From sequence record PQ724394.1: DNA of 64,000 nucleotides; one strand, 5' to 3'. This stretch comes from a phage. Shown here piece after piece: positions 13,245 to 14,234 of this stretch. The first letter of the stretch is position 1, and every line of letters begins with the position of its first letter. Position numbers and translations under genes: made by a program. The notes beneath the pieces were generated by a model, which searched no databases, was not told the origin of the DNA, and saw only the letters and a list, made by a program, of their open reading frames with translations.

Positions 13245-13273
13245 ATAGTATCATGCCTACCGGAGATGTATAC
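13245..13273 (-). promoter_or_regulatory. Early-promoter-like cassette (GTATAC -35 variant, 17 nt, TACTAT -10)
   Basis: Family member of the repeated cassette; -35 is degenerate. Confidence 0.4.
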
Positions 13274-13299
13274 CCTTTTTTTAAGATTTAGAAACAAAA

Positions 13300-13321
13300 A
13301 TGGGACTCCGAAGAGTCCCAT
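13300..13321 (-). terminator. Rho-independent terminator (UUCG hairpin + U-run) after small ORF 13325-13486
   Basis: ATGGGACTC-cgaa-GAGTCCCAT; on minus transcript followed by UUUUUGUUUC. Confidence 0.65.
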
Positions 13322-13324
13322 AAC

Positions 13325-13486
13325 TTATGCAATAACTTTACCGAAGCAAGCAGCATCTGCACGCAATACTGCACGAGCACGAGCTTGAAGCTTATCAACT
13401 ACCTGATTGATACGCTTGTTAGACGCACGCTTGTAACCAGCGCGTTTAGAGGTTCCGTCAACTACTTTAACTTCTTTCTTAGCCAT
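13325..13486 (-). CDS. Small basic protein (53 aa), not in ORF track
   Basis: ATG at 13486 to TAA at 13325; MAKKEVKVVDGTSKRAGYKRASNKRINQVVDKLQARARAVLRADAACFGKVIA; immediately followed by terminator. RBS weak. Confidence 0.35.
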   Translation of the reverse strand: MAKKEVKVVDGTSKRAGYKRASNKRINQVVDKLQARARAVLRADAACFGKVIA

Positions 13487-13839
13487 TTTTAAATCTCTTA
13501 AATTAGGATGCAGGACTTATTGGCATTGCCTGCGCAAGCCCTCAAGGGGAACATAGGTTTTAGATATTTAACGACAGGATAACCGTAAACCTCGTCATCA
13601 TAGCTCTTATCTGTTGCACACCGTTAGCTTAAAGGTTCCGGGTTCGATTTCTCGAGGATAAGATATATACTGATGGATATATAGGCCTTGAGGCGTACTC
13701 CCGATTGGCCATCACCTCGGGGTAGCATGCACTTGCCGCTATAAAATAACATTCAAGAGGTACACCGTAAAACTGCCGGGGTCTTAAAACTATAATGATT
13801 CGCAAATCATTAATCAGACAGTTCGACGGCTCCTCGATT

Positions 13840-14088
13840 TTACTTCAGGGTAATAATAAAATGACGTACTGCTTTACGAGCTGCTGAAGCCAAAGGCTTA
13901 GCATATTTCAGTTCATCTTTTGCTTCCAATTCAGCGGCCAGAGTAGCCTGAGCAGGATTAAGATGTTTGAAATAACGCAGGATTTCCAGTGCTTCGGCTT
14001 CAACATCAATAGATGCGCCGTAGTTTTCGTGACCGTTGTTCCAAGCGTTGCGTTGCAGTTCAAGAGCGTGATTCAGATGTTTGTTCAT
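13840..14088 (-). CDS. rIII: Lysis inhibition accessory protein rIII-like (82 aa from internal Met)
   Basis: Start taken at the internal Met (MNKHLNHALELQ..) to give 82 aa, T4 rIII length; position next to gene 31. Confidence 0.65.
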   Translation of the reverse strand: MNKHLNHALELQRNAWNNGHENYGASIDVEAEALEILRYFKHLNPAQATLAAELEAKDELKYAKPLASAARKAVRHFIITLK

Positions 14089-14226: not shown

Positions 14227-14234
14227 TATTTATA
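14227..14234 (-). promoter_or_regulatory. Late-promoter consensus TATAAATA (minus strand)
   Basis: Exact TATAAATA on minus strand just after gene 31 stop, upstream of rIII. Confidence 0.4.

Follow-up and report, generated by a model that had tools for sequence, protein, structure and literature searches.

Gene 30.9 of T4-like phages, its small basic product and the predicted RNA modules upstream of it

A short open reading frame (ORF) at 13325..13486 on the minus strand of a 64,000-nucleotide phage sequence (record PQ724394.1; this whole stretch is called the window) raises the question whether it is a gene and, if so, what its product and the long spacer in front of it do. The ORF runs from an ATG at 13486 to the stop codon TAA at 13327..13325, and its 53 codons encode MAKKEVKVVDGTSKRAGYKRASNKRINQVVDKLQARARAVLRADAACFGKVIA (53 amino acids (aa), 5.8 kDa). 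We are almost certain that it is a real gene and the ortholog of gene 30.9 of phage T4. The product, gp30.9, is best explained as an early nucleic-acid-binding protein with RNA as the favoured target, and we give this explanation as a whole a probability of about one half. The adjacent spacer appears to hold a set of structured RNA modules, one of which is missing from T4.

Identity and coding status of the ORF

13325..13486, minus strand: ortholog of gene 30.9, encoding a basic protein (PHROG 1427, synteny, intact frames, the ratio of non-synonymous to synonymous substitution rates (dN/dS), and codon-position entropy)

The window comes from a T4-like Dhakavirus. The 1.4-kb stretch around the ORF was found to be 98.7% identical at the DNA level to Escherichia phage dhaeg, with about 98% identity to CLB_P2, the two being members of Dhakavirus (Tevenvirinae), and it matched 959 phage records in all. 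The minus-strand genes in the window are arranged in the order cd, 31.2, 31.1, 31, rIII, a gap of 353 nucleotides (nt), the ORF, 30.8 and 30.7, and this local order, with the ORF between rIII and 30.8, is also that of T4, dhaeg and SP18. All three phages have the ORF annotated, as dhaeg_50 ('30.9 gene product') in dhaeg, as SP18gp223 (gp30.9) in SP18 and as gene 30.9 (NP_049823) in T4, where the 58-aa product is listed as 'conserved hypothetical'. In addition, a protein identical to the 53-aa product is already present in public databases under the label 'hypothetical protein'. The ORF had been called unannotated in a sequence-only reading because the threshold applied there was 60 aa, and this description has to be withdrawn.

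The 53-aa protein matched PHROG 1427, a family of unknown function, across residues 1-51 (E = 6.5e-26), and a sequence search gave 41 homologs with E values down to 2.8e-24. With tblastn the 30.9 ORF was detected in at least 482 phage records; among the matches listed all were genome-sized (~160-175 kb) Enterobacterales phages or fragments, and every locus inspected was T4-like. Conservation of gene 30.9 extends over the enterobacterial T4-like phages and to two T4-like contigs that are more distant. The gene is not a new object, having been catalogued for decades in T4 and being present in hundreds of genomes. Several phage records name the ORF or the spacer '1,4-alpha-glucan (glycogen) branching enzyme', which for a basic protein of 53-68 aa is an evident annotation-transfer error.

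The window protein shared 62-81% identity with the T4, Klebsiella and Edwardsiella types. Like T4 gp30.9 (NP_049823, UniProt P17310), to which it is orthologous and with which it shares the position between rIII and 30.8, it has the invariant core SKRAGYKRxSNxRINQ and a C-terminal helix, and in both phages a hairpin terminator lies directly past the stop codon. The two proteins differ in length (53 aa in the window, 58 aa in T4), and the N-terminal Lys/Ala stretch is shorter in the window.

By itself an ORF of 53 codons is not above chance in an AT-rich genome, and many spurious ORFs of similar size were listed. The ORF was accepted as real because it is conserved, not because of its length. 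In a comparison set of 46 related loci the reading frame, start and stop of 30.9 were intact in all 46, with lengths of 53-92 aa that differed by whole codons; frame conservation in relatives had been chosen beforehand as the test on which the ORF could fail, and no disruption was found. Determined by the Nei-Gojobori method, dN/dS against the window sequence was 0.1-0.45 for 34 of the 36 other distinct 30.9 coding sequences. The two exceptions were locus L007, with zero non-synonymous changes, and the most divergent locus L046, with a ratio of 1.1. Over 643 pairs of 30.9 coding sequences the median dN/dS was 0.31, with dS reaching 1.6. The entropies at the three codon positions were 0.53, 0.45 and 0.97, so that the third position was about twice as variable as positions 1 and 2. 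The core SKRAGYKRxSNxR(I/V)(N/D) was invariant or nearly so in an alignment of 22 sequences, and distant homologs kept the core motif down to about 34-40% identity. On this comparative evidence 30.9 is a small protein-coding gene under purifying selection.

The same results bear on the opposite view, that the ORF is untranslated and its conservation reflects constraint on the RNA, the ORF being a 3' extension of the structured spacer plus terminator. The adjacent spacer is demonstrably constrained as RNA, the Shine-Dalgarno sequence of 30.9 is weak in the window phage and gp30.9 was undetected in T4 proteomics, all of which would suit such a view. RNA-level constraint is opposed by the codon-position asymmetry, by a dN/dS of about 0.3 at dS values up to 1.6, by the preservation of frame, start and stop in 46/46 loci though lengths change in multiples of three, and by the amino-acid motif conserved down to 34-40% identity; we consider it very improbable. 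The in-vivo expression of rIII and 30.9 was reportedly studied by Driukas and Nivinskas in 2003, in work to which PMC9409239 refers.

The spacer between rIII and 30.9

13750..13838, minus strand: module A, a long irregular predicted hairpin (identity with T4; 25 predicted pairs, 5 of them compensatory, from 13 distinct sequences)
13596..13746, minus strand: module B, a predicted seven-helix RNA (RNAalifold, covariation, covariance model)
13557..13602, minus strand: module C1, a predicted hairpin (A)UGAC-G-AGG / CCU-GUCG(U) with the conserved loop ..GGUUAUC.., then conserved GUUAAAUAUCUAAAACC (covariation)
13513..13552, minus strand: module C2, a small predicted hairpin CCCC-UUGA-GGGC, a conserved CUUGCG and a stem GCAGG/CCUGC (lies in module C)

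The 353 nt between rIII and 30.9 contain no credible ORF and are highly conserved. Compared with T4, module A was 98.9% identical (91 nt) and module C (116 nt) was 91.8% identical over 108 aligned nt, whereas the synonymous sites of 30.9 are saturated between the window and T4 (dS = 1.23). Judged by this alignment, modules A and C are far more conserved than the synonymous sites of 30.9. The modularity of the spacer was first shown by blastn of the spacer, and 44 spacers of 120-416 nt proved to be a mosaic of recurrent hairpin modules, the presence and order of which differ between genera. The same pattern was recognised by eye in C2 and, in other genera, in further modules, namely a UGUACG-looped hairpin and a GGCUCUAUG...CAUAGAGCU hairpin.

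Module B is an insertion relative to T4 and was present in 26 of the 46 loci. It was found in 404 phage records, once per genome, where it is mostly unannotated or lies under a spurious small ORF. RNAalifold analysis of 21 distinct sequences (74-100% identity) predicted seven helices with 44 pairs in total; compensatory double changes were seen at 23 of these pairs, and 97.6% of the cells in this structure were paired. Column shuffles gave 9.6 +/- 2 compensatory pairs, with none of 500 shuffles reaching 23, and sliding the partners by 1-3 columns gave 3-8. Folding of single sequences was no better than that of shuffles for module B (z = -0.84) or module C (z = 0.0), and it is therefore covariation that supports the structure of these two modules. 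About 50 G-U cells were counted in our own tally, including a U-G kept in 17 of the 21 sequences, which places the module B RNA on the strand of 30.9.

In the predicted architecture the closing stem P1 leads into a linker-less four-way junction (P1/P2/P4/P5). P2 continues through an 8/6-nt internal loop to the long hairpin P3, while P5 opens into a three-way junction that it shares with P7 and with P6, a hairpin with a GNAA/UAAA loop. Hardly any variation was seen in the unpaired stretches CGGCAAGUGCAUG and GCUAACGGUGUGCAACAGAU. A covariance model of module B gave exactly one match per genome, in every case between rIII and 30.9; in T4, which lacks the module, it found none at the rIII-30.9 locus or in the tRNA/rnaC/rnaD region. 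Searches against Rfam 15 gave no match at the gathering threshold over the whole window and none at E <= 10 over 13250..13900, and no tRNA or tmRNA was detected in the spacer by ARAGORN.

From the rIII stop codon to the module there are 11-137 nt and from the module to the 30.9 AUG 73-185 nt, with other modules between, and C1 stands upstream of it in Klebsiella phage Mineola and downstream of it in the window. A riboswitch or cis-leader would be expected to lie at a fixed distance from, and to overlap with, an expression platform of the regulated gene, and neither was found. With these variable distances and intervening modules, module B behaves as a self-contained RNA domain, unlike an aptamer joined to an expression platform. 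It is a well-supported and apparently undescribed structured RNA of about 150 nt in T4-like phages.

Several other identities were considered for the module and rejected. A GGTTCGAT-like string on the plus strand was reminiscent of a tRNA or tmRNA, yet ARAGORN found none. On the T4 tRNA/rnaC/rnaD region the covariance model reached at most 8 bits, and homology with rnaC/rnaD was dropped. As to coding, the annotated ORFs of 49-58 aa (CPT_Mineola_216, UNI73250) sit in differing frames between phages, the Mineola frame meets a TGA in the window and indels of 1-2 nt occur. A host origin was discarded after blastn gave no match in 5,426 E. coli genomes; the 15 bacterial-genome matches to an 18-base pattern (16 specified bases) were due to chance, none of them fitting the covariance model, and most metagenomic matches to this pattern were likewise chance.

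Among known systems, T4 rnaC/rnaD (species 1 and 2) are, like module B, structured phage RNAs, of about 120-140 nt and processed from longer transcripts; they differ in that they show no similarity to module B and lie at a different locus, in a phage from which B is missing. The put element of HK022 and EAR of Bacillus are cis-acting processive antitermination RNAs and self-contained structured domains upstream of a terminator, as module B is, but B is larger, has a four-way junction and gave no sequence or Rfam match. Module B could be a stable RNA released by processing, a ribozyme, a scaffold for protein binding or an antiterminator of the put/EAR kind acting on the strong terminator after 30.9.

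Modules A, C1 and C2 were also characterised. Module A begins 2 nt past the rIII stop codon, with the predicted stems GAGG/CCUC, CCGU/ACGG and ACUGUC/GGCAGU and the apical hairpin UAAUGAUU-UGCG-AAUCAUUA. C1 is the most widespread module, occurring in nearly all rIII-30.9 spacers and on either side of module B. For its 8-pair hairpin 85% of the cells were paired, as compared to 28-47% with slid partners, and the covariation score was 0.375 as compared to at most 0.11, a value reached by none of 500 shuffles. The second stem of C2 is swapped for GGGAGC/GCUCCC at the same place in other genera.

Some further features of the spacer were observed. At 13831..13836 on the minus strand, in the 5' end of module A and 5 nt past the rIII stop codon, lies a GAGGAG that was invariant in 13/13 distinct module-A sequences. 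It contains GGAG, the motif of the RegB endoribonuclease, and RIII, the product of the upstream gene, is reported to inhibit RegB activation. Phages without module B between modules A and C often have another insert of about 45-50 nt (TACTATCACGCGTCAGAAAAAGGTTATCTGTCTAAG...) there, as seen in L009-L013, L015, L029 and L033, and it partly repeats the C1 loop GGTTATC. The T4 spacer has neither module B nor the TACTATCACGCGTCAGAAAAAGGTTATCTGTCTAAG insert.

Whether the spacer and gp30.9 belong together was also considered. It is a tentative proposal that the rIII-30.9 region encodes undescribed structured RNAs, with module B as a new class of phage non-coding RNA and gp30.9 as its possible partner. 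A partnership of gp30.9 with the leader is weakened by three observations: T4 and many relatives retain gp30.9 without module B, module B was found with both sequence subtypes of gp30.9, and the distant 30.9 loci have spacers of 16 and 89 nt and no modules. In two T4-like contigs of 166 kb and 235 kb (L141, 1103..1779, and L142, 1104..1737) the gene order is cd-31.1-31-30.9, with 30.9 directly after 31 and no rIII. As T4 has 30.9 without B, B spans both subtypes and the distant loci lack rIII and the modules, the structured spacer tracks rIII and not 30.9, and the leader probably does not belong strictly to 30.9. Because 30.9 comes straight after 31 in L141 and L142, the enterobacterial lineage appears to have gained rIII together with the structured spacer by insertion between these two genes.

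Transcription unit, terminator and translation start

13291..13321, minus strand: predicted intrinsic terminator with a 9-bp stem AUGGGACUC/GAGUCCCAU, a UUCG loop and a UUUUUGUUU tail (pattern scan, folding, conservation)
13487..13512, minus strand: AU-rich translation initiation region of 30.9, CCUAAUUUAAGAGAUUUAAAA-AUG (read from the sequence)
13840..14088, minus strand: rIII, 82 aa, the upstream gene of the 30.9 unit (ORF translation; annotated as rIII in relatives)
14227..14234, minus strand: TATAAATA in the gap from gene 31 to rIII (exact match to the late-promoter consensus of T4)

The strong UUCG hairpin terminator that had been claimed to follow directly after the ORF was recovered by the pattern scan. 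It begins 3 nt past the 30.9 stop codon as AUGGGACUC-UUCG-GAGUCCCAU followed by UUUUUGUUU, and its stem of 9 bp includes 5 G-C pairs, with the U-tract directly after, as in intrinsic terminators. The fold had an energy of -16.2 kcal/mol (z = -4.8), and none of 200 shuffles was equally stable. An equivalent GC hairpin with a U-run lies within a few bases of the 30.9 stop codon in 45 of the 46 loci, and the stems vary in a compensatory way (GGGACUC/GAGUCCC, GGGAACC/GGUUCCC, GGGAGAC/GUCUCCC, GGGGCUCC/GGAGCCCC). In the distant L142 the ORF is followed by a terminator and then by a promoter-like TTGACT..TACAAT. As read from the gene order, the unit (...31 - rIII - long structured spacer - 30.9) has 30.9 as its final cistron and is closed by a conserved predicted intrinsic terminator.

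The pattern scan detected no sigma-70-like promoter on the minus strand of the rIII-30.9 gap (13487..13839), and 30.9 is therefore most likely co-transcribed with rIII. The TATAAATA at 14227..14234 may serve as a late start of the rIII-spacer-30.9 transcript; such sites occurred 4 times in the 64-kb window as compared to 6.75 expected by chance, so that the count alone is not significant. Its position upstream of rIII fits the expression of rIII in T4. A GTTAAATA in C1, a two-mismatch variant of the late consensus, was not accepted as a promoter. In L141 an early-promoter-like GTTTAC..TATTAT lies directly upstream of the 30.9 homolog. The transcript of T4 30.9 has been assigned to the class 'early' (PMC9697503 Table S2).

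The start of 30.9 lies in an apparently unstructured AU-rich region, open in the window phage and T4 alike, whose Shine-Dalgarno-like AAGAG is weak and, in the window, precedes the AUG by 8 nt. In many other genera UCUCC...GGAAGA is found in front of the 30.9 AUG, and a hairpin formed by these segments could sequester the Shine-Dalgarno sequence of 30.9. In Klebsiella, Enterobacter and Serratia-type relatives (e.g. L005, 1405..1450), and in the majority of loci not of the T4 type, the sequence preceding the start was UCUCC-AAAAU-GGAAGA. The same relatives have a stem GGGAGC/GCUCCC in front of it that offers alternative pairings, an arrangement missing in the window phage and T4. Literature searches on 30.9, T4 non-coding RNA, T4-like structured RNA and T4 ribosome profiling yielded only a paper on RIII and S1 (PMC9409239) and an omics table (PMC9697503).

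The gp30.9 protein and its possible targets

The description of the product as a highly basic, Lys/Arg-rich protein was confirmed: it has 14 K+R and 4 D+E residues, a net charge of +10 and a pI of 10.77, and none of the 68 window ORFs with 100 aa or more reached its net charge per residue. An AlphaFold2 model (pLDDT 70) showed a disordered Lys-rich N-terminus (residues 1-13) and two helices (14-26 and 28-48), and the helix after the invariant core is amphipathic. Distant homologs carry Lys/Ala/Pro-rich C-terminal tails. Based on the basic composition, the predicted disordered N-terminus and two helices, and these tails, the chance that gp30.9 binds nucleic acid seems to us about even. It is a plausible and the most economical inference, with no homology or fold match behind it.

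In the mechanism that we propose, gp30.9 would be an early-expressed, strongly cationic 5.8-kDa protein with a disordered Lys-rich N-terminus and two helices bearing GYKRxSNxR(I/V), acting most likely through direct binding of nucleic acid. RNA would be its favoured target, and during takeover the protein may adjust the fate or translation of mRNAs, possibly also the translation of its own mRNA via the leader. RNA is favoured because of the RNA-rich regulatory context, the adjacent rIII and the long conserved structured leader on the 30.9 mRNA; RIII has been shown to bind ribosomal protein S1 and to block RegB activation (PMC9409239). That the target is RNA and the role post-transcriptional is a possibility we hold at well under even odds, and autoregulation of 30.9 through the leader is doubtful.

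A number of results weigh against this explanation. The AlphaFold2 model is only moderately confident at pLDDT 70, and Foldseek with the model gave no match in PDB or BFVD. The Pfam search returned only DUF5773 below threshold (E = 0.058), NCBIfam gave no match and a sequence search of PDB was also empty. A profile search of 1.84 billion representative proteins gave 17 matches, none of known function; 15 of them are small basic unnamed proteins with the motif, and the other two are long and repetitive and were taken as spurious. The homology search suggested by the sequence-only reading thus yielded a family (PHROG 1427) and no homolog of known function or fold. Furthermore, T4 gp30.9 was undetected in a proteome time course (PMC9697503 Table S2), although this non-detection is weak evidence either way because a K/R-rich 58-mer gives few usable tryptic peptides. 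In these searches no homology tied gp30.9 to any activity, and it is most safely described as a small, helical and cationic early protein in which one short motif is strictly conserved. Remote relationships to ribosomal proteins (L34, L32, L35), RMF or Rop were considered by eye, and none of these appeared in the Pfam and PDB searches.

The charge and the tails would also suit a DNA-binding, histone-H1-like early protein that would coat or compact the DNA of the host or the phage, for example in nucleoid takeover or modulation of transcription. Homologs have AKKA/AKQAKAKK-type N-termini, distant homologs have PKKAKSRKPSATKAAKAAKK-type C-terminal tails, and the early transcript class of T4 30.9 agrees with such a role. 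The basic tails of the family resemble those of H1-like bacterial DNA-binding proteins. However, no homology to the HU, H-NS, Hc1 or H1 families was found in the Pfam, NCBIfam and profile searches, the invariant part of gp30.9 is a specific motif (GYKRxSNxRI) with a helix and not a low-complexity tail, and the tails vary in length, with none in the window phage. An H1-like role is unlikely in our judgement.

We consider it similarly unlikely that the target is a protein or the ribosome, gp30.9 then being a small cationic protein that modulates the ribosome, RNA polymerase, an RNase or a defence protein of the host by docking on it, possibly together with RIII. Inhibition of host proteins is common among the small early proteins of T4, and a short strictly invariant motif would suit a specific docking surface. 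The co-transcribed rIII points in the same direction, as RIII is an S1-binding protein that blocks the activation of RegB (PMC9409239). Against such a target stand the lack of similarity to ribosomal proteins or known inhibitors in the Pfam, NCBIfam, PDB and profile searches and a linkage to rIII that is not universal, since L141 and L142 carry 30.9 without an adjacent rIII.

A small and basic protein could also be an internal head protein like IPI-IPIII, packaged and injected with the DNA. Internal proteins have a capsid-targeting leader of about 10 residues that ends in an (L/I)xE site for the gp21 protease. No such leader was recognised on reading the N-terminus MAKKEVKVVDGTSKR (MAKKEVKVVDG...), and 30.9 lies outside the neighbourhood of the ip genes. 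Expression timing does not decide the matter, as only the transcript of T4 30.9 has been classed and those of ipII and ipIII are also early, with late-class proteins (PMC9697503 Table S2). We rate a head protein as highly improbable.

For the preferred explanation, nucleic-acid binding with RNA as the favoured target, two known systems are instructive. The helix of the N protein of lambda and P22, an arginine-rich-motif peptide, binds RNA hairpins in leader transcripts. These peptides are small, very basic and partly disordered early phage proteins like gp30.9, and the 30.9 leader is likewise full of conserved hairpins, one of them GAAA-looped. In contrast to N, gp30.9 shows no sequence similarity to these peptides and 30.9 has no nut-like boxA/boxB arrangement; the GAAA loop of helix P6 is not conserved either, with UAAA, UAAU and GUAA variants. 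N-type antitermination is not known in T4-type phages. The second comparison is with the pseudoknot operator of T4 gene 32 and the leaders of ribosomal proteins, where a nucleic-acid-binding protein encoded downstream regulates its own synthesis. As in these, a conserved structured leader is followed by an AU-rich unstructured initiation region at 30.9. The modules of the 30.9 leader, however, are missing from distant 30.9 loci and variable among close ones.

The flagged ORF itself is ordinary, and gp30.9 is one among many uncharacterised small early T4 proteins; its length of 53 aa permits chemical synthesis and easy binding tests. The genuinely new item is the spacer of covarying RNA modules next door, a dense, shuffled set of covarying hairpins that is more strongly constrained than the neighbouring coding sequence. 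Since the model phage T4 has no module B, fifty years of work on T4 passed it by; as a candidate for a new phage RNA it is concrete and can be tested.

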